From a virus, in the UHGV virus genome UHGV-0168673: a DNA stretch of 60,032 nucleotides. One strand, written 5' to 3'. The notes under the pieces are model-generated. The model did no database searches, was not told the origin of the DNA, and saw nothing but the letters and a program-made list of their open reading frames with translations. The translations under genes were made by a program, and so were the position numbers. This document shows positions 1 through 60,032 of this stretch, piece by piece. The first letter of the stretch is position 1. Every line of letters starts with the position of its first letter.

Positions 1-49
1 ACGAGATCGCTCAGTGTCTCGTGGGCTCGGAGATGTGTATAAGAGACAG
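1..49. other. Illumina Nextera adapter / i7 index-primer sequence (library artefact, not phage DNA)
   Basis: ACGAGAT + 8-nt index-like CGCTCAGT + GTCTCGTGGGCTCGG + AGATGTGTATAAGAGACAG (Tn5 mosaic end); exact reverse complement of 59984..60032. Confidence 0.9.
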
Positions 50-670
50 GAGGTAAAGAGATTTCATTAGCTCACGCTTCCAATATGTCTCATGCTCAAT
101 AGCATCTTCAATAACGTCTTCGTCTGCATTAATTTCTTTTTGGTATTCGATATCAGCTTTAGCGTTTTCCCAATAACGAGTTTTAATCAGAACATCATCA
201 TAATAACGTCCAATGGATTCAGCACGTTTCATAATAGCTTCATCTAATACAATTTCATCAAATACCTTCGATGGATCAGTATAAAGATTTCGCATGATAT
301 GAGTATATGAACGACTGTGAATAGTTTCACTAAAAGTCCATGTAGCAACCCATGTATCAAGACTTGGGTCTGAAATTAATGACATAAGTACAGCAGATGG
401 CGCGCGACCCTGAATGCTATCTAAAAGTGATTGATACTTCAGGTTATTAGTAAAAATATCTTGCTGATACTGAGGAAGCTTATTAAACTGTGCAGCATCC
501 ATCATCAAGTTTACTTCTTCAGGACGCCAGAAAAATGATAATTGCTTTTCGGTTAAATCTTCAAAAACTTTATGACGTTGAATATCATAACGCGCAATAC
601 CAAGACCTGAACCAAAAAACATAGGTTCTTTTAAAACATCAACTGGATTTGTATTAAAAACTGTGCTCAT
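50..670 (-). CDS. nrdB: Ribonucleotide reductase class Ia small subunit NrdB, N-terminal ~207 codons only; gene runs off the contig into adapter
   Basis: Track ORF 11..670; MSTVFNTNPVDVL..FFWRPEEV..FSETIHSRSY matches T4 NrdB as recalled; the last ~13 codons of the track ORF are adapter-derived. Confidence 0.85.
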
Positions 671-721
671 AAATTTTCCGCTTAGTTAATAGTTGGTGAC
701 TCGTCCGTGAGTCAAATTATA

Positions 722-2986
722 TCATAATTTACAGGATGAACAATCTTCAGCTTTTGGAGTTTCTATTTCATAATCATCAGTACCAGAACCATCGCGGGTA
801 TTATGATAATAGAAATTTTTTCCGCCAAAATACCAAAAATACAAAAGGTCATCAATCATTATTGACATTGGAACCTTGCCTTTAGGGAAGATTTGGGGGT
901 CATAGTATGTATTCGCCGAAGCTGATTGACAAACCCATTTCAGCATAATAGCTACCTGTGTAAGATAAGGTTTATTACCTTTCTTAGCTAATTTCCACGT
1001 ATAATCATAGAGGTCTATGTTATGCTCAATATTGGGCACGACTTGATTAAAGGAACCCTCTTTTGATTCTTTAACAGAGACTGGTCCACGTGGAGGCTCG
1101 ATACCGTTTGTACTGTTAGAAACTTGGGAAGATGACTCACATGGCATAAGTGCTGATAATGTGCTATTACGGATGCCAAAGAGCTTAAGGTCTTCCCGCA
1201 GCGACGACCAGTCACAAACGTATTTTGGAGCTGCGATTTGGTCAATCTTTTTATTGTACCAGTCGATAGGTAATTCGCCTCGAGACCAACGAGTGTCTGA
1301 ATAATATTCGCAAGGTCCTTTTTCTTTGGCGAGCTTGATGGATGCTTTAATGAGTCCATACTGCAATCTCTCAAATAGTTCATGTGTTAAATCGTTAGCG
1401 TCTTCATAAGAAGCAAAATTACTTGCCAGCCAAGCTGCATAGTTAGTAACACCTACGCCAAGGTTTCGACGCTTTTTAGCTTTTTCTGCTTCAGGAACTG
1501 GATATCCTTGGTAATCCAAAAGATTATCAAGAGCACGAACTTGGACTTCTGCTAATTCATTAATTTTATCTTGGTCTTGCCAATCGAAGTTATCTAACAC
1601 AAATGCAGATAACGTGCACAATCCAATTTCAGCATCAGGACTATTCACATCATTTGTTGGAATAGCAATTTCACAGCACAAGTTACTCTGACGAATAGGT
1701 GCCTTTTCACGAATAAACGGAGTATAGTTATTCGTATTATCAATGAACTGTACATAAATCCTTGCTGTTCCTGAGCGTTCAGTCATGAGCAATTCAAATA
1801 GTTCACGGGCTTTAATACGCTTTTTACGAATATTAGGGTCTTTTTCTGCTGCTTCGTATAATTCACGGAAACGGTCTTGGTCTTTAAAATAAGAATAATA
1901 AAGCTCGCCACCCATTTCATGCGGACTGAACAAAGTAATGTAATCGTTCTTTCCGAATCGTTCCATCATCAAATCATTCAGCTGAACACCATAATCCATA
2001 TGACGAATGCGGTTTTCTTCTACGCCTTTGTTATTTTTCAAAACGAGAAGATTTTCAACTTCCAAATGCCAAATAGGATAATAAGCAGTAGCAGCGCCGC
2101 CACGAATTCCACCCTGTGAACATGATTTAACTGCAGTCTGAAAATGTTTCCAAAAAGGAATAACACCAGTATGGCGTACTTCACCCATGCCAATCTTAGA
2201 ACCTTCGGCACGAATCATACCAACGTTAATACCAATTCCAGCGCGTTTAGAGATATATTCAACAATTGAAGCGGAAGCCTTATTGATAGACTTTAATGAA
2301 TCACCTGCCTCAATAACAACGCATGAACTAAACTGTCGAGTCGGAGTACGACAACCAGCCATAATAGGAGTTGGCAATGAAATCTGTCGAGTAGATACCG
2401 CTTCATAAAAACGGATAACATGTTTTAATCTATCAACAGGTTCATCTTGATGCAGTGCCATTCCAATAGTCATAAATGCAAACTGTGGAGTTTCATAAAT
2501 TTGACCAGTGGTTTTATCTTTAACTAAATATTTTTCTTTTAATTGCATCGCCCCGGAATAAGTAAATTCCATATCCCGCTCGTGCTTAATTTTTGATTCT
2601 AAAAATGTAATTTCTTCTGCTGAATATTTTGACAATAATTCAGGGTCATATTTACCTGCATTTACACAATAAGAAATATGGTCAATAAATGAACGTGGTT
2701 CATACTGCCCATAAACATGCTTACGAAGAGCGAACATTAAACAGCGAGCGGCTACATATTGGTAATCAGGCTCTTCAACTGAAATAGAATTTGCAGCAGC
2801 CTTAATGACAATAGTCTGAATATCATCAGTTGTCATTCCATCACGGAGATAAGATTTAATATTTTCATATAATTCATAAGGATCTACTGATGTTCCCTCA
2901 GCTGCCCAAGATAAAACTTTAATAATTTTTTGTGGGTCAAAGCTCTGAGAAACACCACTACTTTTGATAACATTAATTAATTGCAT
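722..2986 (-). CDS. nrdA: Aerobic ribonucleotide reductase large subunit NrdA
   Basis: 754-aa ORF, same length as T4 NrdA; N-terminus [21 protein letters not shown] and catalytic-region motifs as recalled for T4. Confidence 0.95.
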   Translation of the reverse strand: MQLINVIKSSGVSQSFDPQKIIKVLSWAAEGTSVDPYELYENIKSYLRDGMTTDDIQTIVIKAAANSISVEEPDYQYVAARCLMFALRKHVYGQYEPRSFIDHISYCVNAGKYDPELLSKYSAEEITFLESKIKHERDMEFTYSGAMQLKEKYLVKDKTTGQIYETPQFAFMTIGMALHQDEPVDRLKHVIRFYEAVSTRQISLPTPIMAGCRTPTRQFSSCVVIEAGDSLKSINKASASIVEYISKRAGIGINVGMIRAEGSKIGMGEVRHTGVIPFWKHFQTAVKSCSQGGIRGGAATAYYPIWHLEVENLLVLKNNKGVEENRIRHMDYGVQLNDLMMERFGKNDYITLFSPHEMGGELYYSYFKDQDRFRELYEAAEKDPNIRKKRIKARELFELLMTERSGTARIYVQFIDNTNNYTPFIREKAPIRQSNLCCEIAIPTNDVNSPDAEIGLCTLSAFVLDNFDWQDQDKINELAEVQVRALDNLLDYQGYPVPEAEKAKKRRNLGVGVTNYAAWLASNFASYEDANDLTHELFERLQYGLIKASIKLAKEKGPCEYYSDTRWSRGELPIDWYNKKIDQIAAPKYVCDWSSLREDLKLFGIRNSTLSALMPCESSSQVSNSTNGIEPPRGPVSVKESKEGSFNQVVPNIEHNIDLYDYTWKLAKKGNKPYLTQVAIMLKWVCQSASANTYYDPQIFPKGKVPMSIMIDDLLYFWYFGGKNFYYHNTRDGSGTDDYEIETPKAEDCSSCKL

Positions 2987-3303
2987 AAGTCCTCAACTTG
3001 AAAATCGTCTTTAAACAATCGGTTAACTATATGAGCTATTATATCACCATGACACGGCTTTGGTTTACATGTGCATCCTAGCCTCATTCCACGTAAAGGC
3101 TCTAAATGTGCTTTAGTTATTTCTCCGGATTTAATTCGACGTATAAAATCTTTTTTGAATAATTCAATGGCAGCCGGGAGGCTGCCAGCATCTTTACCGA
3201 CGTAATTTCCCCAAAATGTACCGCGGTGAATATTAACATCAAAGTCGGATTTGTATTTATTCACTACCCGGCATAGACGGCCCACGCTGGAATAATTCGT
3301 CAT
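2977..3303 (-). CDS. Hypothetical protein (position of T4 nrdA.1), Cys/His cluster [11 protein letters not shown]
   Basis: 108-aa track ORF overlapping nrdA start by 10 nt; no function inferable. Confidence 0.55.
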
Positions 3304-3520
3304 ATTGTTTTTCCGTTAATACAGTAATATCATAGTAACAATCGGAAGAAGTTTTAACTGTGGAAATTTTATTATCAAAATACTCACGAGTCATTTTATG
3401 AGTATAGTATTTTTTACCATAAATGGTAATAGGCTGTTCTGGTCCTGGAACTTCTAACTCGCTTGGGTTAGGAAGTGTAAAAAGAACAACGCCAGAAGTA
3501 TCTTTAAATCGTAAAATCAT
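3257..3520 (-). CDS. Hypothetical protein (position of T4 nrdA.2)
   Basis: 87-aa track ORF; start overlaps td stop (coupled arrangement). Confidence 0.5.
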
Positions 3521-4377
3521 ATTGCCATTTTCCCTTTAATTGCTGGATGCGATTCATAATTTTCAAGGATAAAATCTTTCGGTTTCATGTATTCAGTTAA
3601 CCAGTAAAGCTGTGTTTCGGTGTCACAATTTCCAAACTCTATAGGCCAATCAATTTTAAGTTCACACAGTTCTTTAGGCTCACGACGTAAAATTTCTTTA
3701 CATTGTGCAGTATGATTCATATAGATGTGAGTATTACCACCAGAAAATATCAAATCTCCTGGGATAAGATTACACATCTTAGCCACAATATGCGTCAAGG
3801 CAGCGTACGAGGCAATGTTGAATGGCAAGCCCAAGAAAACATCTACACTTCTTTGGTACCATTGTAAATCAAGATAACCATTACGCACATTAAACTGATA
3901 GAACATATGACAGGGCGGTAATGCCATTTGATTGATTTCAGCTGGATTCCATGCTGAAACGATTTGACGTCGATCAGTTGGTAATTTTTTAATACGATCA
4001 ATAGTTTCAACTAATTGATCCACACCGCCGAAATCACGCCATTGTTTACCGTATATAGGACCAAGTTCACCACTATGATATCCTAGGTCTTTAGCCTGGT
4101 TTTCATAGTTATCGTCCCAAATAGTTTTACCTTGAATAAGACTGCCATGAGTGCGAAGACGTAAATCATTAACATTGGTAGAACCGGAAATAAACCATAG
4201 AAGCTCAGCAATGCATGCATTCCAGGCGAGCTTTTTAGTTGTTACTGCAGGAAAACCTTTGGTTAAATCCCAACGCAATTTAGTACCGAACAAAGCAATT
4301 GTTCCTGTGCCTGTTCGGTCATCGGTTTCATAACCATTTTCAAAAATGTCTTTAATTAAATCTTGGTATTGTTTCAT
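3517..4377 (-). CDS. td: Thymidylate synthase, uninterrupted (no intron)
   Basis: 286-aa continuous ORF; [26 protein letters not shown] and PPCH active-site region match T4 Td. Confidence 0.95.
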
Positions 4378-4422
4378 TTAGTACCTTATATAAATTATAA
4401 TACATTTTATGAAGCTAAATAA

Positions 4423-4770
4423 TCAATACGGTTTAGCATCAAATTTTCTCTCAATTTCAGGCGTGAAATATAATTCTTTACCGCGTTTGGAAAAGCGACC
4501 AATAATATGATAATTATTCTCATCAAACGTGATATTACCAATATCCATAGCTTTCAACCAAATATCGATATTTCTGTCAAGCTTTATATCAAAATTCCAA
4601 TACGGAGAACTATTACCAAAAATACTGCAAGCGGATTCAGTGAAACAACTGCTATAAATTTTGTCTTTAGGAACTATTAATTGATAGACGCCTTTAATAA
4701 ACTGAGGACCTTGCCATTTTGGTTGTTTCGCGTCTTTTTCTAATAGAATAGGGTAATAATTAAAATTCAT
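4423..4770 (-). CDS. Hypothetical protein encoded between frd and td
   Basis: Track ORF 4423..4782 starts at GTG; first ATG (MNFNYYPILL..) at 4770; no recognisable motif. Confidence 0.55.
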   Translation of the reverse strand: MNFNYYPILLEKDAKQPKWQGPQFIKGVYQLIVPKDKIYSSCFTESACSIFGNSSPYWNFDIKLDRNIDIWLKAMDIGNITFDENNYHIIGRFSKRGKELYFTPEIERKFDAKPY

Positions 4771-4790
4771 ATTTTCCGCCACGTATTATT

Positions 4791-5617
<827 letters not shown>

Positions 5618-5628
5618 ATTATCTCCTA

Positions 5629-5961
5629 TTAAAAAGGATCAGGAATATATCCGCTAGCTTTAATCATTTTAATTAACGTTAGCATTCCTTTATTAACCGC
5701 TAGTGAGATTTCATCAAAAACTTCATCACTAAAAAGTTCTAACACACCCTTCTGAACTTTTAATTTACAGCCAACAATTTCGTCATCGCCTATAGTAAAT
5801 TCATTACCACCAATTCCTCCGAAAAACTTAATTACACCAGTTAACTGTCTTCCACGAGAATATGGGTCGTGTGATAAAGTAATATGAGTCACCCCGGGTA
5901 CAGTTTTAAATTGGCAGCGAATATTTACTTGTGAAATTCCAGTTACATGAATATCAGACAT
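5629..5961 (-). CDS. Hypothetical protein
   Basis: 110-aa track ORF with GAGGA SD. Confidence 0.55.
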   Translation of the reverse strand: MSDIHVTGISQVNIRCQFKTVPGVTHITLSHDPYSRGRQLTGVIKFFGGIGGNEFTIGDDEIVGCKLKVQKGVLELFSDEVFDEISLAVNKGMLTLIKMIKASGYIPDPF

Positions 5962-5971
5962 AATATTTTCC

Positions 5972-6214
5972 TCAAATAGACTTTTTCACAATTTTCCAAT
6001 CAGCTTTAAACTGATCAACGTCAGAGTGATAAATCCAAAATCCTGCGCTTTCTCCATCCTCATAAAGAGGGCATCTATCACATTCATCTTCCCATCCCAT
6101 ATCACGCAAAAGATGTTCAGCTTTTTCAACAAGTTCAGAATCTTTACCGATGATATTAAAATACCATTTACCTCTAACTTCTGAATCTTTGATGCTTTGG
6201 CGTTGTAATCTCAT
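5972..6214 (-). CDS. Hypothetical protein
   Basis: 80-aa track ORF; GAGGAG SD and early-promoter module immediately upstream. Confidence 0.6.
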   Translation of the reverse strand: MRLQRQSIKDSEVRGKWYFNIIGKDSELVEKAEHLLRDMGWEDECDRCPLYEDGESAGFWIYHSDVDQFKADWKIVKKSI

Positions 6215-6243
6215 TTTATTCTCCTCAGTAGTTGATAGGGTAA

Positions 6244-6272
6244 TAGTATCACACTACTACCCTGTTGTAAAC
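6244..6272 (-). promoter_or_regulatory. Early promoter (-35 GTTTAC / -10 TGaTACTAT)
   Basis: Same module as at 7235; upstream of ORF 5972..6214. Confidence 0.55.
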
Positions 6273-6274
6273 AA

Positions 6275-6535
6275 TTATTTTTGAATTTTATCGAGCCACT
6301 TACCAAGCTTAATCATTTCTTTAGTAGCCTTTTCCATACTTCTGAACTTAACCAATAGAGGATAGGTATCGACACCCATAACTAAACTGGTTACAAGACT
6401 GTGTTCACCCACAAGCCATAATGAATACGTTTGAATATCGAGTCCGTAATTTCTGTCTTTATGGACCCGTACACCCATCACTTCAAATTTCTCACTAGCT
6501 TTTTCTACCGCATCCAGGAAATCATCTTTAGTCAT
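6275..6535 (-). CDS. Hypothetical protein
   Basis: Track ORF 6275..6577; I prefer the ATG at 6535 (MTKDDF..) one nt after the upstream stop (TAA-T-ATG coupling); the 6577 ATG is an alternative. Confidence 0.45.
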   Translation of the reverse strand: MTKDDFLDAVEKASEKFEVMGVRVHKDRNYGLDIQTYSLWLVGEHSLVTSLVMGVDTYPLLVKFRSMEKATKEMIKLGKWLDKIQK

Positions 6536-6536
6536 A

Positions 6537-6917
6537 TTAGGCCTTAAAAGTTTTTCGCAAAAGTTCAATGATTTCATCTACATTGTTTTCGTCAACAATG
6601 CAGTGAATTTTTGTTACGCCAGAAACCTTGTCTTTGACTTCATCTTCTTCAGAAGTCGGTTCTTTATACTCACGAAAACAATGAAATTCATCTTCGCAAA
6701 TTTCTAAAAGTCTATCTTTGAGGTAAAAATGCTTTCCATTTGCGCATTCAATGTGTTTTACTGCTTTATATCCATTAGCGACGGAAACTTCTTTAACTTC
6801 AAACCATCCGCCATTATCTCGAATAGCTTTAACGATTGATGAATTAGAACGTGGGCTATAATTAATAAATGTATCAATAAGTCTTGGAACAAGCTCATAC
6901 TTTTTGCCGATATACAT
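6537..6917 (-). CDS. Hypothetical protein
   Basis: Track ORF starts at TTG 6974; first ATG (MYIGKKY) at 6917 preceded by GAGGAA. Confidence 0.55.
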   Translation of the reverse strand: MYIGKKYELVPRLIDTFINYSPRSNSSIVKAIRDNGGWFEVKEVSVANGYKAVKHIECANGKHFYLKDRLLEICEDEFHCFREYKEPTSEEDEVKDKVSGVTKIHCIVDENNVDEIIELLRKTFKA

Positions 6918-6963
6918 TACGGTTTCCTCATTTTGATAGGGGCTTGATAGAGCCCCTTGATAA

Positions 6964-7191
6964 TTATTGTTCAATCAGTCCCATGTAAAATTCTGCGTCT
7001 TCAGAATCCATGCCATCACAATATTCATTAGCCATAAAGCGGGTGAGGTCTTCAAGAGGACCTTCAACAACAATTTGAATACTCCAAAATTTAGAATCTT
7101 GCACACTTGTGATACTAAGTTCAGGATAACGATTACGAATAATCTCTTCAATATATTCAAAATCAACAATGTCAATATCAACTTTAGCCAT
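6964..7191 (-). CDS. Hypothetical protein
   Basis: Track ORF 6964..7254; first ATG (MAKVDID) at 7191 preceded by GAGGAA and an early promoter. Confidence 0.55.
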
Positions 7192-7234
7192 ATTATTTTC
7201 CTCTTTAATCATCAGCAGTATTGCCGATAGTTGT

Positions 7235-7264
7235 ATAGTACCATGGAAGGACAAGGATGTAAAC
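7235..7264 (-). promoter_or_regulatory. Early (sigma70-type) promoter: -35 GTTTAC, 18-nt spacer, TG-extended -10 TACTAT
   Basis: Minus strand GTTTACA..TGGTACTAT with A/T-rich upstream region; directly upstream of ORF 6964..7191. Confidence 0.6.
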
Positions 7265-7289
7265 CGTTTTGTGAAAAAAATTTTTGAAA

Positions 7290-7316
7290 TAAAAAAAGGG
7301 GACCTCTAGGGTCCCC
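7290..7316 (-). terminator. Rho-independent terminator after gene 32
   Basis: Minus strand GGGGACC-CUAGA-GGUCCCC followed by UUUUUUU. Confidence 0.7.
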
Positions 7317-7338
7317 AATTAATTAGTAATATAATCTA

Positions 7339-8247
7339 TTAAAGGTCATTCAAAAGGTCATCCAGGTCCGTGTCATCAGCACTAGATGAACTACCAGAGC
7401 TTGAGCTCATAAAATCATCTTCAGTTTTTGTATTGAAGTCATCAACATTGAATGCATCCAAATCATCAGCAACTTTATCAGCTTTCTTAGCAGCAGTTGC
7501 AGCGGCACCGCCCATCACAGCAGTTCCCATGACTTGACCGAATTTAGTGCTCAGTTCTTCAAACGATTTGAATTTATCTTTAGAAGTCATTTCAGAAAGG
7601 TCAACCATTTGTTCGAACAATTCTTTCTGGAAAGATTCATCATCAATGTTTGGAATCGCAGATTGATTCAGGAATTTAGATTCGTCGTAGTTACTAAATC
7701 CAGAAACTTGTTTAACTTTCAGTACAAAGTTAGCACCTTCCCACGGACAAGTTACATCAACCGGAGTTTCACCCATTTCAACATCAACCGCAATCATCGC
7801 GTTGATTTTATCCCAGATTTTCTTACCGAAACGATATTTAAATACTTTACCTTCGTTTTCTGGAGCAGCTGGGTCTTTTACAACAAGAATGTTAGCCCAG
7901 TAAGAAGTTTTACGTTTAACAAGACTGTACTCTTTATTGTCAGTGTTGTACAGATCATTTTTACTGATGTATTGACATACTGGGCAAGAATCGTAATCAC
8001 CATGGGTAGATGAACATGTTTCAATATACCATTTACCATTTTTCTTGAAACCGTGATTTACAAGAATTGCGAATGGTGCTTGTTCATCATTTTTAGACGG
8101 AAGAAAACGAATTACTGCTTGACCGTTACCCGCATTATCGAGTTTCAGTTTCCACTCGCCTTTATCTTCAGAAGAAAAACCACCTTTATTTCCAGCCAGT
8201 TTAGCCATTTGTGCAGCGAGTTCAGCAGTAGATTTACGTTTAAACAT
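7339..8247 (-). CDS. 32: Single-stranded DNA-binding protein gp32
   Basis: 302-aa ORF; [17 protein letters not shown].. and acidic C-terminal tail match T4 gp32. Confidence 0.97.
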
Positions 8248-8330
8248 TTTTATTTCCTTTTTAATTTAATTAACAGTTGGTGCTATGACGATGTATGACC
8301 TCATAGCTGGTCAGTGAGATAATTATAATC
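8248..8330 (-). promoter_or_regulatory. Gene 32 mRNA leader: autoregulatory translational operator (pseudoknot plus unstructured UUAAA-repeat region)
   Basis: Minus strand ..GACCAGCUAUGAGGUCAUACAUCGUCAUAGCA..CUGUUAAUUAAAUUAAAAAGGAAAUAAAAAUG matches the T4 gene 32 operator as recalled. Confidence 0.7.
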
Positions 8331-8338
8331 TATTTATA
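8331..8338 (-). promoter_or_regulatory. Late promoter motif TATAAATA upstream of gene 32 leader
   Basis: Exact TATAAATA on minus strand, ~84 nt upstream of the gene 32 ATG. Confidence 0.45.
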
Positions 8339-8346
8339 ATAAGCAA

Positions 8347-19420: not shown

Positions 19421-19450
19421 GGAGAGGGGCTTCGGCCCCTTCTAAATATG
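19421..19450 (+). promoter_or_regulatory. Gene 38 split ribosome-binding site: SD GGAG, then C(UUCG)G hairpin, then AUG
   Basis: GGAG-AGGGGC-UUCG-GCCCCU-ucuaaau-AUG; linear SD-to-AUG distance ~23 nt, shortened by the hairpin. Confidence 0.65.
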
Positions 19451-19999
19451 AAAATATATCATTATTATTTTGACACTAAAGAATTTTACAAAGAAGAAAA
19501 TTACAAACCGGTTAAAGGCCTCGGTCTTCCTGCTCATTCAACAATTAAAAAACCTTTAGAACCTAAAGAAGGATATGCAGTTGTATTTGATGAACGTACT
19601 CAGGATTGGATTTATGAAGAAGACCATCGCGGAAAACGAGCATGGACTTTTAATAAAGAAGAAATTTTTATAAGTGAAATTGGAAGCCCGGTTGGTATAA
19701 CTTTTGATGAGCCTGGCGAATTTGATATATGGACTGATGACGGTTGGAAAGAAGACGAAACATATAAGCAAGTTTTAATTCGTAATAGAAAAATTGAAGA
19801 ATTATATAAAGAGTTCCAAGTTTTAAATAATATGATTGAAGCTTCTGTCGCAAATAAAAAGGAAAAATTTTATTATAAAAACCTTAAGCGGTTCTTTGCT
19901 CTTTTAGAAAAGCATGAGCATTTAGGTGGTGAATTCCCTTCATGGCCTGAAAAAGAACGGAAACCTTGGTATAAGCGTTTATTCAAGCATTACGTATAA
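19448..19999 (+). CDS. 38: gp38, long tail fibre assembly chaperone (T4-type, not the T2-type adhesin)
   Basis: 183-aa ORF, same length as T4 gp38; MKIYHYYFDTKEFYKEENYKPVKGLGLPA.. Confidence 0.9.
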   Translation: MKIYHYYFDTKEFYKEENYKPVKGLGLPAHSTIKKPLEPKEGYAVVFDERTQDWIYEEDHRGKRAWTFNKEEIFISEIGSPVGITFDEPGEFDIWTDDGWKEDETYKQVLIRNRKIEELYKEFQVLNNMIEASVANKKEKFYYKNLKRFFALLEKHEHLGGEFPSWPEKERKPWYKRLFKHYV

Positions 20000-23533: not shown

Positions 23534-23683
23534 TTACTGCATGACTGTGATAACTGTCATGATAACACGTTGAATTCCGAACGCAAGAAGACCTCCTGCT
23601 ACGGCTGGAACAACACCTAAACCCGCCAGTAAAATGCTACCGGATACTAATGCAGCGCTTGTAATACCTATGAATGGACTCAT
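23534..23683 (-). CDS. Small hydrophobic protein (49 aa; motA.1 position), not in ORF track
   Basis: MSPFIGITSAALVSGSILLAGLGVVPAVAGGLLAFGIQRVIMTVITVMQ; ATG overlaps gene 52 stop (ATGA). Confidence 0.5.
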   Translation of the reverse strand: MSPFIGITSAALVSGSILLAGLGVVPAVAGGLLAFGIQRVIMTVITVMQ

Positions 23684-25008
23684 TTGATTTCCTCTAAATC
23701 TTTAGTGTATTCAGTAACTACATCAGTAGTTTTCCAATATTCGTTTTCTTCTTTTTTAGCTTTAGCTTCTTCAGCAAGTTTCTTTGCTTCGTCGGAAGTC
23801 ATATGAAAAATATTCATTCCAACTAATTTATCAACATAAGAAGAATACATATCGATTTTCGAAAGTTCTTCGGTCAGTTCTTTACGAGTTTTACCCTGTA
23901 CAACAATTTCACATGAAATTACTTTCTTAATGAAATGTGCCTTGGCAAAGGCTAAACGAAAGGCTGACTCAGTTTCTTTAATTTTGTTATCAATTCGTTT
24001 TTGGACATAAGTTTTACGAACTTCGACGAAGTCTTTGATTAAATCAACTACGTTATCGTAAACTTGTAGTTTTCCTTTCTCATTAATAACCGTAATATTC
24101 TGAGAACGACGCTCAATCAACCCGAAGTCTTTCATAATTTTTGCATGGCGTTCTTCTTCGTTATCGCTCAAAGAATATTCTTTGCGGAATTTAACTTTGA
24201 ATCCAAAACCGTGCTCACCACAAGCATCATCCCATGTAATGAAGCCTTTATCTTCAAGTGGGTCTAAGATTTTACTCACATAAGTTTCACGATCATACTT
24301 ATACGGAATCTCAGTGATATGCATTTGAGTTCGTGAAGTAAACTTGTACGTTCCACGAATTTCATATTGACCGTCAATCTCAACGACTTCACCACGAAAT
24401 TCTGGGAATTCTACCTTCGGTTTAGTTACTTTCTTTCCTTGAAGAGCTTGCAGTACAGCTTTCTTGACAGAAGAAACACTATGAGGAAGAATGTAAGTTG
24501 CATAACCAGTTGCAATACCGGAAACACCATTAAGAAGAACAGTAGGAATAATAGGCAAATAGAAAGCAGGCGGAATGTGTTCTTTATCTTGATGTACCGG
24601 AGCATATTCAGTATCTTTATATACGTTATAGAAATTTTTACTTACACGAGCAAAAATATAACGACTTGCTGCTGCTTTTTGGACGGTACGAGAACCGAAG
24701 TTTCCTTGACCATCTAACAGAGGAAAATTATTATTCCAAGTGTTAGCCATCAAAGCACCTGCATCTTGTGCAGAGTTTTCACCATGATGATATCCAAGGT
24801 CAGCTACACCACCTGCAATAGAAGCAAGTTTGTGAAACTTATCTTTATTTCCTCGTGCCAAATCAAGAGCTCGAGCAATAACAAATCGTTGGACTGGCTT
24901 AAATCCGTCAATCATATTTGGGATAGCACGATTTTCAACCGTGTACATAGCATAAGCCAATGCTTCATTATCAATAATACTTTTTAAATCGCGATTATTC
25001 AGTTGCAT
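23680..25008 (-). CDS. 52: DNA topoisomerase II medium subunit gp52
   Basis: 442-aa ORF MQLNNRDLKSIIDNEALAYAMYTVENRAIPNMIDGFKPVQR.. matches T4 gp52. Confidence 0.95.
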   Translation of the reverse strand: MQLNNRDLKSIIDNEALAYAMYTVENRAIPNMIDGFKPVQRFVIARALDLARGNKDKFHKLASIAGGVADLGYHHGENSAQDAGALMANTWNNNFPLLDGQGNFGSRTVQKAAASRYIFARVSKNFYNVYKDTEYAPVHQDKEHIPPAFYLPIIPTVLLNGVSGIATGYATYILPHSVSSVKKAVLQALQGKKVTKPKVEFPEFRGEVVEIDGQYEIRGTYKFTSRTQMHITEIPYKYDRETYVSKILDPLEDKGFITWDDACGEHGFGFKVKFRKEYSLSDNEEERHAKIMKDFGLIERRSQNITVINEKGKLQVYDNVVDLIKDFVEVRKTYVQKRIDNKIKETESAFRLAFAKAHFIKKVISCEIVVQGKTRKELTEELSKIDMYSSYVDKLVGMNIFHMTSDEAKKLAEEAKAKKEENEYWKTTDVVTEYTKDLEEIK

Positions 25009-31114: not shown

Positions 31115-31318
31115 TTAATTCATATTACGCTTAATAACTTCAGCAACTTCTAGTAGTTCATCTTTAGTTGCAGTGTCGGATTGAATTTTATCTCTAATAT
31201 CTTTAAAGCGGTTTTTAAATTCTTCGGCTTCTCCCATATCGAAAAAGCGTTGAATGATTCTATATTCTCGATGAACTGCTTTATCAAAAAGTTCTAAATT
31301 TACTTTATATGATTTCAT
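31115..31318 (-). CDS. Hypothetical protein (rIIA.1 position)
   Basis: 67-aa track ORF. Confidence 0.6.
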
Positions 31319-31372: not shown

Positions 31373-33190
31373 CTACTGGCTCATCCATTCTTTGCGAAGG
31401 TCAGCATTATCTCCCATGAGCATTTCAAAAAGCTCTTTCCAGTTCTCAGGAAGTTTAACAACATCATATACTGGGTTTTGAATCATCTCACGATATTCAG
31501 ATTTTTCCAAAGAGCCAAGTCCTTTAATATAACGGATGCTATGTTTAGGTAGAGCATCTTTGGCACTCTCATATTCAGCGACTGTATAAAACCATTCTTG
31601 TTTTTTACCGACCTGAGCGATGATTACAGGAGTTTTGACAAAGCGAATTCGTCCTTGCTCAAACAATTCTGGCCAATTACTAAAAAATCCGAGCAGAGAA
31701 GGATAAATGCTTCCTAGACCATCATGGTCAGCATCAGTCATAATAGCAATATTATGATAATTCAAGTTTTCAGCTTTTTCACCAAGAACTAGACCAGTGA
31801 TTGCGCAAATATCAAATAGTTCTTTGTTTTTAAGCATATCGGCATATGACATACCCCAGCTATTAAGAACTTTACCGCGCAATGGATAACCACCATGAAG
31901 TTCTTTATCGCGAACATCAATAAGATATCCGATAGCTGAATCACCCTCAGTCAAGAACAATGTAGTGTCAGCATCTTTACCGCAAAGATTCGCTTTAATA
32001 TGTTTATGAACCTTAGCTTTAGAAGCCTTTTTAGCTGCTTTAGTTTCTGCTGCTTTTTCTGCCGCCAATTTACGAGCCAAAGCAGCTTCAATAATCGGCA
32101 TCAGAATTGCTTCATTATTTAGAATAGCGCGTGAAATCTTTTTAGCGTCAAGTTGAATATGACTACGAATTTCGCCAAATGGAGAAGTCAAACGCTCTTT
32201 AGTTTGAGAATCAAATCGCATGTTTTTCATATCACGAACAAACATAACGATAGTCAAACATTCTTTAACGCGTGCTTTAGTTACATCAATTTTGAACTTA
32301 CGTTTGATTTGTGGAATAAGGTCTTCACAAATATCATCCATAACACAGTCAATGTGATGGCCACCATTCTTAGTATGAATGTTATTGACGTATGTTAATT
32401 GACGAAAACCATCCGGTGAACGACCAACCGCAATAGAACAATTTTCTTGTTCTTGAACAATAGCATGCTCATCATATTGGCGTGCATATTTCTTAAAATT
32501 ACCCTGAACCTTTTTACCATTAAAGGTAAATTGAATATCAGGATAAACAACAGCAAGTGTCTGGAGACGATCTAATGTAATGTCAAGATAAACTTGGGAC
32601 AGCTCATTAGTTTCAAATGACATAAAATCAGGAATGAAAGTAACACGGGTTCCTTTCCATTTTCCAGGAATATCTTCCCATGATTTATTTTCCATGCCGT
32701 TTGAACAACGAACTACAATATTATTTTGACCGTCGCCAGTTTCACCAACAAACATCACAGAAAAAATGTTTGTCAAACTAGAACCAACACCATTCATACC
32801 GCCGGTGACGCGTTCTTTATCATCACCGAAGTTACCTCCTGCTTTTGGAATAGTCCACGCAGCAACAGGACCAGGAATTTCTTCACCGGTAGGTGTTTTA
32901 ACCATCGCTTGTGGAATACCGCGACCGTTATCTTCAACTGTTACTTGATTGTTTTTAATAGTAACATTAATTTTATTTGCGAATTTAAACTTAGTACGAA
33001 TACCTTCATCTACTGAGTTATCGATAATTTCATCAATAAGCTTAACAAGACCAGGTACATACTGAACACTTTCCCATTTACCAAACAGAAAGCGCTCATG
33101 CATTTCATTAGCAGAAGAGCCAATGTACATGCCGCTACGCTTTTTGATATGTTCAATATCGCTCAGAATTTTAATTTCATTCTTAATCAT
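31373..33190 (-). CDS. 39: DNA topoisomerase II large subunit gp39, uninterrupted (T4 gene 39 + gene 60 equivalents in one ORF)
   Basis: Track ORF starts at GTG 33193; from the ATG: MIKNEIKILSDIEHIKKRSGMYIGSS..(GyrB-like ATPase) continuing through ..NIAIMTDADHDGLGSIYPSLLGFF..KEWMSQ (T4 gp60 segment); 605 aa. Confidence 0.9.
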   Translation of the reverse strand: MIKNEIKILSDIEHIKKRSGMYIGSSANEMHERFLFGKWESVQYVPGLVKLIDEIIDNSVDEGIRTKFKFANKINVTIKNNQVTVEDNGRGIPQAMVKTPTGEEIPGPVAAWTIPKAGGNFGDDKERVTGGMNGVGSSLTNIFSVMFVGETGDGQNNIVVRCSNGMENKSWEDIPGKWKGTRVTFIPDFMSFETNELSQVYLDITLDRLQTLAVVYPDIQFTFNGKKVQGNFKKYARQYDEHAIVQEQENCSIAVGRSPDGFRQLTYVNNIHTKNGGHHIDCVMDDICEDLIPQIKRKFKIDVTKARVKECLTIVMFVRDMKNMRFDSQTKERLTSPFGEIRSHIQLDAKKISRAILNNEAILMPIIEAALARKLAAEKAAETKAAKKASKAKVHKHIKANLCGKDADTTLFLTEGDSAIGYLIDVRDKELHGGYPLRGKVLNSWGMSYADMLKNKELFDICAITGLVLGEKAENLNYHNIAIMTDADHDGLGSIYPSLLGFFSNWPELFEQGRIRFVKTPVIIAQVGKKQEWFYTVAEYESAKDALPKHSIRYIKGLGSLEKSEYREMIQNPVYDVVKLPENWKELFEMLMGDNADLRKEWMSQ

Positions 33191-33217
33191 CACTTATCCT
33201 CGTTTGGTTTCGGGAAT

Positions 33218-33245
33218 ATTATACTCCGGCAATCATAAAGCTAAA
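33218..33245 (-). promoter_or_regulatory. Candidate MotA-dependent middle promoter for gene 39
   Basis: Minus strand tttAGCTTTA (one mismatch to MotA box TGCTTtA), 12 nt, TATAAT. Confidence 0.35.
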
Positions 33246-33260
33246 GGCCCGAAGGCCTTT
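33243..33260 (-). other. C(UUCG)G hairpin / possible terminator upstream of gene 39
   Basis: Minus strand AAAGGCC-UUCG-GGCCUUU. Confidence 0.5.
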
Positions 33261-33529
33261 TATTTAAAACGAATAGTTGAATCCTTAAAGAACAGCCCAG
33301 AACATATTGTTCCTTCTACTTTCTGCCCAGTAGGTCCAATAGCACGAAATCCAGTATGTTGGAAATCATTTTCAGAACAACCAAACCAATTATATCCAGT
33401 GATTTCAATATTAGTAAAACCACTTGAAGATAAAATTTTAGTTGCATTATCAGCATCAGTGCATCCTACTAAAGATACTGCTAATACTAATGCTGCAATA
33501 GAACGATTAATATATTTCATAATTTTCAC
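33260..33529 (-). CDS. Hypothetical lipoprotein-like protein (39.1 position)
   Basis: 89-aa track ORF; N-terminal signal peptide ending LVGC (lipobox-like). Confidence 0.5.
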   Translation of the reverse strand: MKIMKYINRSIAALVLAVSLVGCTDADNATKILSSSGFTNIEITGYNWFGCSENDFQHTGFRAIGPTGQKVEGTICSGLFFKDSTIRFK

Positions 33530-33897
33530 TTAAATTTAATAGCTTGAAGGAGACTAATAATTCTTAAACGGCTTCTTTCATCTTTAACTGTAAAAGAAAG
33601 AGGGTCACCAGATTTCATAGTAATAGTACATTCAAAATCAAAATCTTCGGAAACTTCTTTGAAGAAGTCAAATTCTTCATCATAAATTAGAACATTACTC
33701 TGAAAACTGTGAAGAATTTTTCCATCATTTCCGGATGCTGTACTAATCATTGTAACATTATGACCTTTCATATCTTCAACGATAAATTCGCTTGTAGATA
33801 TTACAGCATTAATAGAACCATTCCTATAAATAGCAGACATTAGATATTTCTTTTCTTCGCCTTCGCGAATACGATATTTCTTACCGATTTTAAACAT
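33526..33897 (-). CDS. Hypothetical protein (39.2 position)
   Basis: Track ORF starts at GTG 33903; first ATG at 33897 (MFKIGKKY..). Confidence 0.5.
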   Translation of the reverse strand: MFKIGKKYRIREGEEKKYLMSAIYRNGSINAVISTSEFIVEDMKGHNVTMISTASGNDGKILHSFQSNVLIYDEEFDFFKEVSEDFDFECTITMKSGDPLSFTVKDERSRLRIISLLQAIKFK

Positions 33898-33899
33898 AA

Positions 33900-34076
33900 T
33901 CACCCTTTAAGTAAATCGTAAAAACCACCATTCACATGCTTAGGAGCAGAAGGCCGACGAGTAGACAAACGATGACATTTAGGGCAAACATCATTTTCTC
34001 GTTCAGAAATCTTTTTAATTTTTTCATATTCATGCCCGCAATCTTCGGATTGGCATTTATAATCATACATTGGCAT
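33900..34076 (-). CDS. Small zinc-ribbon-like protein (58 aa), not in ORF track
   Basis: MPMYDYKCQSEDCGHEYEKIKKISERENDVCPKCHRLSTRRPSAPKHVNGGFYDLLKG; Cys pairs C8/C13 and C31/C34; AAGGA SD; wedged between flanking genes with 2-nt gaps. Confidence 0.5.
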   Translation of the reverse strand: MPMYDYKCQSEDCGHEYEKIKKISERENDVCPKCHRLSTRRPSAPKHVNGGFYDLLKG

Positions 34077-44377: not shown

Positions 44378-44551
44378 TCAGTCTTCAATGAAAACTTGTG
44401 CCAGGAATTCGTGTTCATCTTGAATTTGTTTATATAAAGCCATTACAGCATTTATATTAGAGCTATCTACTTTAAGTTGATAAGCATACCACTCGTGTAA
44501 ATTAATTAAAGCTTTTTGACGTCTAATAAATTCTTCTTTGGATATTTTCAT
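44375..44551 (-). CDS. Small hypothetical protein (58 aa), not in ORF track
   Basis: MKISKEEFIRRQKALINLHEWYAYQLKVDSSNINAVMALYKQIQDEHEFLAQVFIED; ATG overlaps upstream stop; would overlap the soc late promoter, so uncertain. Confidence 0.35.
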
Positions 44552-44742
44552 TTTGAATGCTCTATAATTAATTTTAAAGCTTCTTCACTGACAAAAATTT
44601 CGTCAGGACCTTCTATAACTTCAACCATACGAAGTTGATTAGTTAAGAGCTCACATACGAGCTCCTTGTTATAATCTTTAAATAGCTGGTCAATGCGTTT
44701 CTTATGGGCTTTCTTGAGCTGACGCTTATTTAAACGAGCCAT
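44548..44742 (-). CDS. Hypothetical basic protein
   Basis: 64-aa track ORF; ATG overlaps gene 56 stop by 1 nt. Confidence 0.5.
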   Translation of the reverse strand: MARLNKRQLKKAHKKRIDQLFKDYNKELVCELLTNQLRMVEVIEGPDEIFVSEEALKLIIEHSK

Positions 44743-45260
44743 TAATAACCTCGGTCTTGACGAGCGAAGTTTTCAGCATTTTTCAGGTAATAAAGTTTAA
44801 AGATTTCTTCAGCTGACATTCCAAGAGCAATAAATTTATTCATGAAAAAGTGAAATTGGTCAATCAGTTCAAATTTAATTTCAAGCTGATCTTCAGGAGA
44901 TAAATCTTGAATTTTCTTGGATTGCATTTCAGAATAACGTTTCTTCCAAGGTTTCCATACAGCAGAAGCTTCTTTTTCACCATTACTCATACCACCAAGA
45001 GAAGTATATAGCTCGCGAGTTTCATCTGCGATATAATCGTCTTGGTTTCGCAACCAAGCAAGAACTTCTCCTGCAGTTTCAAGTGAATCAGGATGACGAT
45101 TTGTTTCTGGTTTATCATTAGCCAAACGAATCTGTAAATGCCGCTGCATGTCAAGCATAACCTGCAGTGGGTCAATATTGTGCATAATATTCTCAGCATA
45201 TGCACGATTTGCTTTATCAACACCTTTGATCAAATGAGCACATTCATTAAAGTGAGCCAT
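44742..45260 (-). CDS. 56: dCTPase / dCTP pyrophosphatase gp56
   Basis: Track ORF starts at GTG 45353; from ATG 45260: MAHFNECAHLIKGVDKA..LQVMLDMQRHLQIRLAN..KEASAVWK..EIFKLYYLKNAENFARQDRGY matches T4 gp56. Confidence 0.9.
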   Translation of the reverse strand: MAHFNECAHLIKGVDKANRAYAENIMHNIDPLQVMLDMQRHLQIRLANDKPETNRHPDSLETAGEVLAWLRNQDDYIADETRELYTSLGGMSNGEKEASAVWKPWKKRYSEMQSKKIQDLSPEDQLEIKFELIDQFHFFMNKFIALGMSAEEIFKLYYLKNAENFARQDRGY

Positions 45261-45331
45261 TATTTTTCCTTTCAATTCATGGGTTAGTAGATTAATTATA
45301 CAATAAATATATAAAGCAATAAGGAGGACAT

Positions 45332-50352: not shown

Positions 50353-51526
50353 TAAATTCTTCCATATCACTTAACTGCTCGAGGTCAGTTTCTAAATCAG
50401 CAGCTGATTTACTTTTACTTTCTGGAGATTTAAATTTTTCAACCTTTGAGTTAATTAATTCATCAACTTCAGCTTCAACAATTTCATTACTATCAATAGC
50501 ACCTAACTGATAAGCACGCTTAATAGCATCTCGGAATGGTTGATGCTTAAATAAAGGACCCCAGAATGTAGTGCAGTTAGTATCTTTTGCACGCCAAGAT
50601 TTTTCTTCGCGAATCATCTCGCCGGTTTCTTCATCAAGAAATTCACGAGCATACCAACCATTTTTAGGTTTTACAACAAATCCTAATTCTAGAGCCATAT
50701 CTAACAATCCAGAATAAGGATCGATACCACCGTCAAATTTAACATCAATAAAGAATTTACTTTTTTCTTTAACGGTACGAGATTTTTCTACATTTAGAAC
50801 AAATTGATACCCCTGAAGATCAGAACCATCTTTAATCTGGCGTTTACCGATAATGAATACAGTATCAGCCGAATACATTACGCCTGTACCACCTGTCATC
50901 ACGGTTTTACTAAACATTTCAATTGTTTCAATTGTATGGTTAACCGCAACACATGGAATATTTTTAATGCTAAAATAAGGAGTAACAATACGGAATAATG
51001 ACTTCAGTGATTTAGCACGAGTCATATCTGCCACAGATTTTTCATTTAAGGCATCTTCCGTTTCTTTCTTAGAAGCCATATTACCGATTGAGTCGATGAA
51101 TACAATAACCTTTTCACCGCGCTCAATAGCTTCAAGCTGGTTCACCATATCAATTTTCAGCTGTTCAACTGACTGGATTGGCGTATGAATTACTCGTTCC
51201 GGGTCAACTCCCATGGATCGCAAATAAGCTGGAGTAATACCAAATTCGCTATCATAGAATAGACAAACCGCGTCAGGATATTTGTTCAAATATGCCGCAA
51301 CCATAGTCAAAGACATATTTGATTTAAAGTGTTTAGAAGGCCCTGCGAAAATAGTTAAACCAGACTGCATGCCGCCATCAATCGCACCAGAAATAGCAAT
51401 ATTAAGCATTGGGATTTTTGTACGGATTACATCCTTTTCATTAAAGAATTTAGATGTAGTCAGTTCAGCAGTCATTTTAGAAGTGGAAGCTTTAATCAAA
51501 CGGGATTTTAAATCTGCAATAGACAT
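50345..51526 (-). CDS. uvsX: UvsX recombinase (RecA homologue)
   Basis: 393-aa ORF; RecA-fold motifs and acidic C-terminus as in T4 UvsX. Confidence 0.95.
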   Translation of the reverse strand: MSIADLKSRLIKASTSKMTAELTTSKFFNEKDVIRTKIPMLNIAISGAIDGGMQSGLTIFAGPSKHFKSNMSLTMVAAYLNKYPDAVCLFYDSEFGITPAYLRSMGVDPERVIHTPIQSVEQLKIDMVNQLEAIERGEKVIVFIDSIGNMASKKETEDALNEKSVADMTRAKSLKSLFRIVTPYFSIKNIPCVAVNHTIETIEMFSKTVMTGGTGVMYSADTVFIIGKRQIKDGSDLQGYQFVLNVEKSRTVKEKSKFFIDVKFDGGIDPYSGLLDMALELGFVVKPKNGWYAREFLDEETGEMIREEKSWRAKDTNCTTFWGPLFKHQPFRDAIKRAYQLGAIDSNEIVEAEVDELINSKVEKFKSPESKSKSAADLETDLEQLSDMEEFNE

Positions 51527-51603
51527 TCATTTTTTCCATAGGCATCATTATATTTTCCTCACTGGTTAAAGATAGAGTAATTATAACACAATAAATTTAG
51601 GCA

Positions 51604-52446
51604 TTAATCAACTGCTATTGGATGAATAGCATTAAACTTATGAAATGCTTCTGATTTTTCTTTGCGCGAAACACACATGCGAAGAACCTTTAATGGCTCG
51701 TCTTCTTCACCCAACGATTTTCGTTTTTCAATATTAGAAGTTTTCCAACGAGCTTGCTCTGGAAACTCTCTATTGATTTGCTCAAGCGCTCTATTATGTT
51801 TAGAATTACTACGAATTGAACTACACCCGCCAGGAGCTTGTGCTTTTCCAGATACAACCAGATATTTGAACAAGGCCAAATGCGGATAACCTTGATTAAT
51901 TAAATTGAGAAATGCATACATATCTTCGCATAAATCAATTTTTCCATACCCAATTTGTTCTGTCGTAAGTTTTCCGAGGTCATACCATGTATTCGTGAAT
52001 CCATATGAATTTTCACGATAATTACCCCAAGATGAAGTAATTTTAAAAATTGGTAGGCGAGCATGACCATGATAATACCCGCAATCCATGGCATCTTCAA
52101 CGTATTGAATCAATTCATAGAACTGTTCACGGGTTAATTGATTGACTTTATCTACACAACGACGGTCATCTCTTTTTCGCATTGAACTCATACGAATAGT
52201 AGTATCATCGTCAATCATCCAGATTCGTTGACCTGCATACATATTAGTAATTGCTTTACGAGTACCGGCAATTCCGTTTACATCATCAGGAATAGTTATA
52301 ATTTTAGCTCTAGACCCATAAGCGTCATGATAAGCTTTTTCTTCGTGTTCACGCACTACAATATGGGGTTCATAATCAGTCGGAAACATATCAAGGGCAG
52401 AAACTGCCCCGACACGCTGATAACTTGGAATTACGAATTGAATCAT
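51604..52446 (-). CDS. Putative glycosyltransferase (GT-A-like, DxD motif) at the position of T4 beta-glucosyltransferase
   Basis: Track ORF starts at GTG 52452; ATG at 52446 overlaps gene 42 stop (ATGA); 280 aa, VIPSYQR near N-terminus and IWMIDDDTTI; not T4 Bgt (351 aa). Confidence 0.55.
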   Translation of the reverse strand: MIQFVIPSYQRVGAVSALDMFPTDYEPHIVVREHEEKAYHDAYGSRAKIITIPDDVNGIAGTRKAITNMYAGQRIWMIDDDTTIRMSSMRKRDDRRCVDKVNQLTREQFYELIQYVEDAMDCGYYHGHARLPIFKITSSWGNYRENSYGFTNTWYDLGKLTTEQIGYGKIDLCEDMYAFLNLINQGYPHLALFKYLVVSGKAQAPGGCSSIRSNSKHNRALEQINREFPEQARWKTSNIEKRKSLGEEDEPLKVLRMCVSRKEKSEAFHKFNAIHPIAVD

Positions 52447-53183
52447 TTCCACTCACCTTTATAGTCTTTTTTCACAATATGAGTTTCGCCAGTATTCCAC
52501 CAATGATCAACCAAGTAAAAATGACGAGAATATACATGAAGACTTCCGACATTCCATATAATAGAACCTGCTTTATACTGACGAGTTGAATCGCCTGCAT
52601 TCAAATCAGATACTAATTTATCTAATACGTATTTTTGCCATGCATAATCATTACGGAATCCGAAGACCACGTCATTTGAGCGCATGCTTACTACTGCATT
52701 GACTTTCTTATCACGAATCAGGTACTGTACTGTATTAGTACACATGAAATCTGACATACCATCTTTATTGTAGTCAAATTGCATGGATGGACGAGTATAA
52801 ATCATGATACCACGTCGAGAATCAGGATTTTGACCAAGTTCAGCTAAACACATATCATACTGGGCGTAGTTATCTTCTGACCAAATAGCCCAACCATAAT
52901 TCGAGTTAATTTCGCCTTTAGAAGATGCTACTTGCTGCCAAATCTTCGGTGTTTCACCTGGAATATCTTTAACAAACAGACTTTGAGACTTGTACCATTC
53001 AAGTTCACGCTGAATGTATTCATCATTAAGAGCGCCAAAAATAAAGGGTTCATCTGCTACAAATGATGCGCCAATAATTTCAATAGTTTTAACACCAGTT
53101 TTATCAACTACGAAATCTTTTTCTTTTAATGCAAGCCCCAAATGAAGACGGATTTCTTCAACTGTCAAAGAGTCACTAATCAT
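52443..53183 (-). CDS. 42: dCMP hydroxymethylase gp42
   Basis: 246-aa ORF MISDSLTVEEIRLHLGLALKEKDFVVDKTGVKTIE.. matches T4 gp42. Confidence 0.95.
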   Translation of the reverse strand: MISDSLTVEEIRLHLGLALKEKDFVVDKTGVKTIEIIGASFVADEPFIFGALNDEYIQRELEWYKSQSLFVKDIPGETPKIWQQVASSKGEINSNYGWAIWSEDNYAQYDMCLAELGQNPDSRRGIMIYTRPSMQFDYNKDGMSDFMCTNTVQYLIRDKKVNAVVSMRSNDVVFGFRNDYAWQKYVLDKLVSDLNAGDSTRQYKAGSIIWNVGSLHVYSRHFYLVDHWWNTGETHIVKKDYKGEWK

Positions 53184-59983: not shown

Positions 59984-60032
59984 CTGTCTCTTATACACAT
60001 CTCCGAGCCCACGAGACACTGAGCGATCTCGT
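59984..60032. other. Illumina Nextera adapter / i7 index-primer sequence (library artefact)
   Basis: CTGTCTCTTATACACATCT + CCGAGCCCACGAGAC + index-like ACTGAGCG + ATCTCGT; reverse complement of 1..49. Confidence 0.9.

Follow-up and report, generated by a model that had tools for sequence, protein, structure and literature searches.

Gene 39 of a mosaic Tequatrovirus encodes the topoisomerase II large subunit in one uninterrupted reading frame

The MobA element is a mobile cassette that enters an uninterrupted gene for the topoisomerase II large subunit (Topo2L), according to the account by Manning and Atkins (2022, bioRxiv 10.1101/2022.08.31.505936), which cites Bonocora et al. (PNAS 2011), and to Edgell et al. 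(PMC2988022). By the same account, the element in phage HY01 deletes 64 nt of the host gene, adds C- and N-terminal extensions to the two resulting proteins and brings in the translational bypass, and experiments on T2 showed both nicking by MobA and transfer of the cassette (bioRxiv 10.1101/2022.08.31.505936). The same work describes independent cassette insertions in several phage clades and, in other clades, elements that have lost some of their parts as well as 'hit and run' cases. The uninterrupted state itself has been known since T2/T4 comparisons (Huang et al. 1988; Bonocora et al. 2011, both as relayed by Manning and Atkins; Edgell et al. 2010, PMC2988022). For T6, gp39 together with gp52 has been resolved by cryo-EM with and without DNA, and its relaxation activity has been measured (Nat Commun 2024, PMC11461880); structures of T6 gp39 are deposited as PDB 8ylu, 8yo1, 8yo5, 8yo7, 8yod and 8yon.

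The interrupted state is seen in the T4 reference (NC_000866, of which positions 1-8000 were compared). Its annotated order is rIIA, rIIA.1, 60, 60.1, mobA (defective), 39 and 39.1, and gene 60 is annotated as two joined pieces with a 50-nt 'translational bypass' at 2803-2852, a gap between codons 46 and 47 that ribosomes hop. The T4 element splits TOPRIM, gives gp39 a 43-aa tail and gp60 about 30 new residues, and carries an HNH endonuclease gene or pseudogene. RB51 and RB32 carry the unsplit gene, annotated '60plus39', as does the DNA analysed here, a stretch of 60,032 nt that we call the window. Its minus strand almost certainly holds a Tequatrovirus gene 39 in the normal uninterrupted state (T2/T6 type), encoding the GyrB-like topoisomerase II subunit in one 605-aa chain, between the same flanking genes (39.1 and rIIA.1) that enclose genes 39 and 60 in T4. 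The gene and the elements around it are as follows.

31373..33190, minus strand: gene 39, DNA topoisomerase II large subunit, unsplit ('60plus39' type), 605 aa plus TAG stop
33197..33201, minus strand: putative Shine-Dalgarno sequence GAGGA, read from the sequence, 6 nt upstream of the ATG at 33190
33218..33241, minus strand: promoter-like element, GCTTTA (33236-33241, MotA-box-like), 12 nt, then TATAAT (33218-33223), recognised by eye
33243..33260, minus strand: stem-loop AAAGGCC-TTCG-GGCCTTT (UUCG tetraloop), directly after gene 39.1, recognised by eye
31115..31318, minus strand: rIIA.1, the immediate downstream neighbour of gene 39, which is also the neighbour of T4 gene 60

The ORF listing gives a single minus-strand ORF at 31373..33193, with 606 aa counted from a GTG. 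We take its actual start to be the ATG at 33190, which yields 605 aa, because GAGGA lies 6 nt upstream and the resulting N-terminus, MIKNEIK, is also that of T4, T2 and T6 gp39. Translation would then be conventional, running from this ATG to the TAG at 31373-31375 without recoding. The product contains the peptide quoted in the initial annotation (NIAIMTDADHDGLGSIYPSLLGFFSNWPELFEQGRIRFVK ... KEWMSQ), and it is matched over its full length by PHROG 543, 'DNA topoisomerase II large subunit' (E = 2.4e-295). The single 605-aa ORF proposed in the initial annotation was confirmed by a gap-free 605-residue alignment to T6 gp39 (8ylu_C). The ORF sequence was inspected for a frameshift, an internal stop and a bypass-like untranslated gap, any of which would have contradicted that proposal, and all three are absent across the 605 codons. 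With stops taken at about 7% of random codons, a hand estimate puts the chance of 605 open codons in DNA of about 36% G+C at about 1e-19.

The GCTTTA/TATAAT element at 33218..33241 resembles the T4 middle-promoter consensus and may be active as a middle promoter. The stem-loop at 33243..33260 is likely a terminator or an mRNA-stabilising hairpin. A sigma-70 scan around gene 39 did not list the promoter-like element among its sites, a terminator scan of the same region did not call the stem-loop, and the number of sites from the two scans was no higher than in shuffled sequence.

The Pfam domains HATPase_c, DNA_gyraseB and TOPRIM_C all fall in the same polypeptide, and the catalytic motifs lie between and within them.

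32744..33052, minus strand: GHKL ATPase core, Pfam HATPase_c, aa 47-149, above the Pfam cut-off
32039..32443, minus strand: transducer, Pfam DNA_gyraseB, aa 250-384, 51 bits against a cut-off of 27
31934..31948, minus strand: TOPRIM catalytic glutamate motif EGDSA, aa 415-419, located in gp39 in T4
31718..31735, minus strand: TOPRIM DxDxD metal-binding motif DADHDG, aa 486-491
31379..31636, minus strand: C-terminal TOPRIM-associated domain, Pfam TOPRIM_C, aa 519-604, located in gp60 in T4

The ATPase core carries the GHKL motifs EIIDN (54-58, N-box), DNGRG (87-91, the G1 DxGxG) and GGMNGVG (130-136, the G2 GxxGxG), and the transducer carries the QTK loop with its lysine in the sequence FDSQTK (SQTK at aa 328-331). 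TOPRIM is complete in one chain, with EGDSA 415-419 and DADHDG 486-491 sharing one ORF. The earlier description of T4 gp39 as the GyrB-like ATPase domain was correct in that the ATPase is present, but T4 gp39 also includes the transducer and the first half of TOPRIM with EGDSA. With EGDSA in T4 gp39 and DxDxD in gp60, the T4 gene is divided within TOPRIM, immediately before the DxDxD motif.

Bacterial GyrB and ParE share with the window gp39 the domain order (GHKL, transducer, TOPRIM, tail) and the catalytic motifs, and solved GyrB/ParE chains match it with E-values of 1e-36 to 1e-47. Sequence scores against eukaryotic Topo II are higher (E about 1e-59), and the best score against the NCBIfam GyrB/ParE equivalogs is 233.5 bits, below their cut-offs of 740 to 900. 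By these sequence comparisons, the window gp39 is the B-type subunit of a type IIA topoisomerase and not an orthologue of bacterial gyrase or Topo IV. The T-even enzyme relaxes DNA (PMC11461880). It is not known to supercoil DNA. The partner subunit is encoded elsewhere in the window.

23680..25008, minus strand: gene 52, GyrA-like DNA-cleavage subunit and partner of gp39, 442 aa, DNA_topoisoIV E = 3e-76

This gp52 is 99.5% identical to T4 gp52 and contains the active-site tyrosine motif AASRY. Together with gp52, gp39 would form an A2B2 type IIA topoisomerase, as has been shown structurally and enzymatically for T6 Topo II. In such an enzyme, ATP-driven dimerisation of gp39 would drive the passage of a duplex through a transient double-strand break mediated by gp52. 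The difference of only two residues from the assayed T6 gp39 leads us to infer ATP-dependent relaxation activity for the window enzyme.

Comparison with T4 places the junctions exactly. Window residues 1-473 are 98.5% identical to T4 gp39 1-473, and window residues 472-605 are 95.5% identical to T4 gp60 27-160; in the protein alignment, nothing in the window corresponds to the C-terminal 43 residues of T4 gp39 or to the N-terminal ~30 of T4 gp60. The union of gp39 and the gp60 segment in one gene, as first proposed, is thus supported by alignments to both T4 proteins. At the DNA level, window 33362-31773 matches T4 5500-3911 upstream of the site (96.9%), and window 31708-31015 matches T4 2793-2100 downstream of it (99.3%). 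Between these blocks, window 31764-31719 matches T4 2899-2854 at only 76%, and this T4 segment is HomR, the cassette's diverged copy of the target. Homology to T4 DNA stops at window 31773 and restarts at 31708, so that 64 nt in the window stand against 1,117 nt in reference T4.

31709..31772, minus strand: empty MobA insertion site, 64 nt, CDS nt 1419-1482, coding roughly AENLNYHNIAIMTDADHDGLGS

The 1,117-nt T4 element includes both the HomR copy (76% identity) and the 50-nt bypass gap. The HY01 element is 1,106 nt long with an intact mobA (273 codons), and the 64-nt/1,106-nt geometry that we measured against HY01 is the same as the published one. Positions 31709-31772 are the unoccupied homing site of the MobA cassette, which in T4 and about 9% of sequenced close relatives takes the place of these 64 nt with the HNH endonuclease gene, the extensions, the diverged target copy and the 50-nt bypass gap. 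Alignment to T4 genes 39 and 60, the intervening insert and T2 gene 39 recovered both the exact junctions and an unsplit gene of T2 type.

Neither mobA nor the bypass element was expected from the first reading of the sequence, and direct searches agreed with both expectations. A tblastn search of the 60-kb window with HY01 MobA returned only a chance match (E = 3.4), and the site holds just 64 nt. The whole T4 insert, compared with the window by blastn (word size 7) and tblastx, gave only chance 12-17-mers and the HomR homology at 31703-31777. Allowing as many as 18 mismatches for the 50-nt gap sequence and 4 for the take-off hairpin gave no match to either in the window; three matches at 6/19 mismatches look like noise and lie far from gene 39. 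The T4 bypass site reads GAT GGA, then UAG, the 50-nt gap, GGA, and then TTA GGT TCT, whereas the window codons GAT GGT CTA GGA AGC are unbroken, and the take-off glycine, Gly491, is encoded by GGT and not GGA. The would-be take-off region folds weakly and non-significantly (z about -0.5 to -0.6), and no counterpart of the perfect 10-bp stem with UUCG loop of T4 was found in the folded window segment. The window protein lacks the nascent-peptide signal KYKLQNNVRRSIKSS, which in T4 belongs to the N-terminal extension of gp60, and also lacks the insert-derived C-terminal extension of gp39. No Rfam family matched anywhere in the window at gathering thresholds.

The closest likeness is to the unsplit genes of T2, T6 and RB51, in which gene 39 has the same length as in the window (1,818 nt). 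T2 gene 39 (AP018813 2447..4264, 605 aa) has the same architecture, and its product shares 604 of 605 residues with the window protein (F70L). At the DNA level the two genes share 96.6% identity overall, rising to 100% over CDS nt 1380-1520, which holds the MobA target region; the 61 nucleotide differences, mostly synonymous, lie outside this segment. T6 gp39 (PDB 8ylu_C) is identical at 603 of 605 residues in a gap-free alignment over 1-605, and D173T and Q526H are the only differences. The RB51 gene is 97.5% identical in DNA and differs at two amino acids. With target DNA (CDS nt 1380-1520) that matches T2 base for base, the window phage would be susceptible to MobA homing and could be used as a natural recipient in experiments on it.

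The uninterrupted junction is also the common state among phage records. A 131-nt junction query (31680-31810) was counted only when fully covered, and the counts refer to records, some genomes being present as both GenBank and RefSeq copies. The uninterrupted junction occurs in 451 phage records, including T2 at 100% identity, and most of the covering records reach 95% identity or more. The T4-type cassette occurs in 43 phage records, and cassette-bearing genomes such as T4 match only the last 29 nt of the query. A figure of 494 covered records was set aside, as it could include split alleles whose two parts had been joined over the 1.1-kb insert. With 451 against 43 records, the uninterrupted state is the norm (about nine-tenths of records), and the cassette is present in about 9%. 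The unsplit arrangement is already known and ordinary; the exception is T4, with a divided gene and a ribosome hop. As regards the MobA/bypass cassette, the locus is a textbook 'empty site', one further example of a pattern that is already established. In annotation, it should be called as one 605-aa topoisomerase II large subunit, with no join or bypass feature carried over from the T4 reference.

That the split state of T4 is the derived one, as the initial annotation stated, agrees with the published account (Bonocora 2011, as relayed in bioRxiv 10.1101/2022.08.31.505936). The unsplit architecture is regarded as ancestral because TOPRIM is contiguous in every other type IIA topoisomerase and because the cassette is a mobile element. 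The term 'ancestral arrangement' therefore suits the gene architecture; for this particular lineage, a history free of invasion and restoration is probable. The MobA/bypass cassette could have been present in an ancestor of this phage and then been removed exactly, through homologous recombination with a co-infecting phage that lacked it, so that the present allele would be a restored one. T-even genomes are highly mosaic, and identity to T4 differs between the upstream (96.9%) and downstream (99.3%) sides of the site and varies blockwise across the window, so recombination near the gene 39 locus clearly occurs; partial loss of the element and 'hit and run' events in other clades (bioRxiv 10.1101/2022.08.31.505936) point the same way. 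Against such a history, the 64-nt segment has the parental sequence, the same as in T2 and matching HomR at only 76%, with no cassette-derived polymorphism; the window protein retains no remnants of the extensions; and the empty site is the majority state (451 versus 43 records). A precise restoration would leave no trace in the sequence. A restored allele is improbable, and a lineage whose gene 39 is simply the normal uninterrupted one of the T2/T6 type is much preferred.

The quality of the contig bears on a second alternative. Illumina Nextera adapter read-through was found at 1-49 (minus) and 59984-60032 (plus), in the order CTGTCTCTTATACACATCTCCGAGCCCACGAGAC, index ACTGAGCG, then ATCTCGT. 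With adapter at both ends, the window is a complete contig whose real phage sequence spans 50-59983. A truncated nrdB ORF (11..670) was considered as an intron case and rejected, as the adapter creates its false C-terminus, which ends in LSLIHISEPTRH and a stop. The untrimmed adapter indicates incomplete read clean-up and could suggest that the contiguous ORF arose in assembly, for instance from a mixed phage population whose split allele is masked in a chimeric or consensus contig. Such an artefact is very hard to reconcile with the data: the adapter is confined to the two termini, with none within 30 kb of gene 39; the gene is base-for-base colinear with the 1,818-nt genes of T2, T6 and RB51; and its junction is common to 451 records, mostly at 95% identity or more and at 100% in T2. 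The adapter does not affect gene 39, though the quality of the assembly is imperfect. Another recoding or mobile element (intein, intron or frameshift site) elsewhere in the ORF, considered since the topoisomerase and nucleotide-metabolism genes of T-even phages are frequent targets of mobile elements, was not found and has a negligible likelihood given the gap-free alignment to T6 gp39 over 605 residues, the length shared with T2, T6 and RB51 and the lack of any Rfam match in the window.

The uninterrupted gene 39 lies in a mosaic Tequatrovirus genome whose closest records, teqskov and S1P5QW, share about 97% identity with it. The six T4 homing-endonuclease genes of this interval (mobE, I-TevI with the td intron, segG, mobA, segF and segA) are absent from the window; for mobE, I-TevI, segG, segF and segA, tblastn with the T4 proteins gave no window match at E <= 0.01. 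Since all six genes are absent, the mobA site is not the only empty one in this genome.

671-725, 3826-3829, 8311-8345, 44378-44778 and 51515-52460: window positions for the other five T4 homing-endonuclease genes, which are absent here

The td gene is a contiguous 286-aa ORF at 3517..4377. At the position of T4 segF, the window has small ORFs of PHROGs 9053 and 5782 (function unassigned). The T4 annotation has segF directly adjoining gene 56, and the window gp56 (dCTPase; 44742..45260, minus strand) is 69% identical to T4 gp56 at the protein level, where its neighbours are roughly 95-99% identical. Genes 56 and 61 are only 20 nt apart in the window (45301-45320), and T4 has ~900 nt there, including dam (DNA adenine methyltransferase); no Dam homolog was found in the 60-kb window. 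The beta-gt gene of T4 is likewise absent from the window, and a 282-aa glycosyltransferase (51604..52452, minus strand; Pfam TAGT) replaces T4 segA and the beta-glucosyltransferase. This enzyme belongs to PHROG 842, 'beta-glucosyl-HMC-alpha-glucosyltransferase' (E = 1e-88), and is of T2/T6 type, whereas gp38 (19448..19999) is of T4 type (98% identity); the genome is thus a mosaic of T2/T6-like and T4-like modules. Near gene 39, a 125-aa ORF absent in T4 lies between 39.1 and 39.2 (33526..33903, minus strand). It corresponds to 'ORF005c' of RB51, RB32 and T6 (PHROG 622) and is weakly similar to the N-terminal part of goF-family PHROGs.

A discrepancy was also observed within the T4 reference itself. 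At gene 39 codons 326-328, NC_000866 encodes MR-LIR-QTK, and MR-FDS-QTK is encoded in the window, in T2 and T6, and in HY01, which bears the cassette. The T4 reference DNA differs there by a compensating -1/+1 pair, CGATTGATTCGTCAA against CGATTTGATTCTCAA, inside the conserved QTK loop. The LIR at 326-328 of the T4 reference is probably an old sequencing error or a laboratory-strain change.
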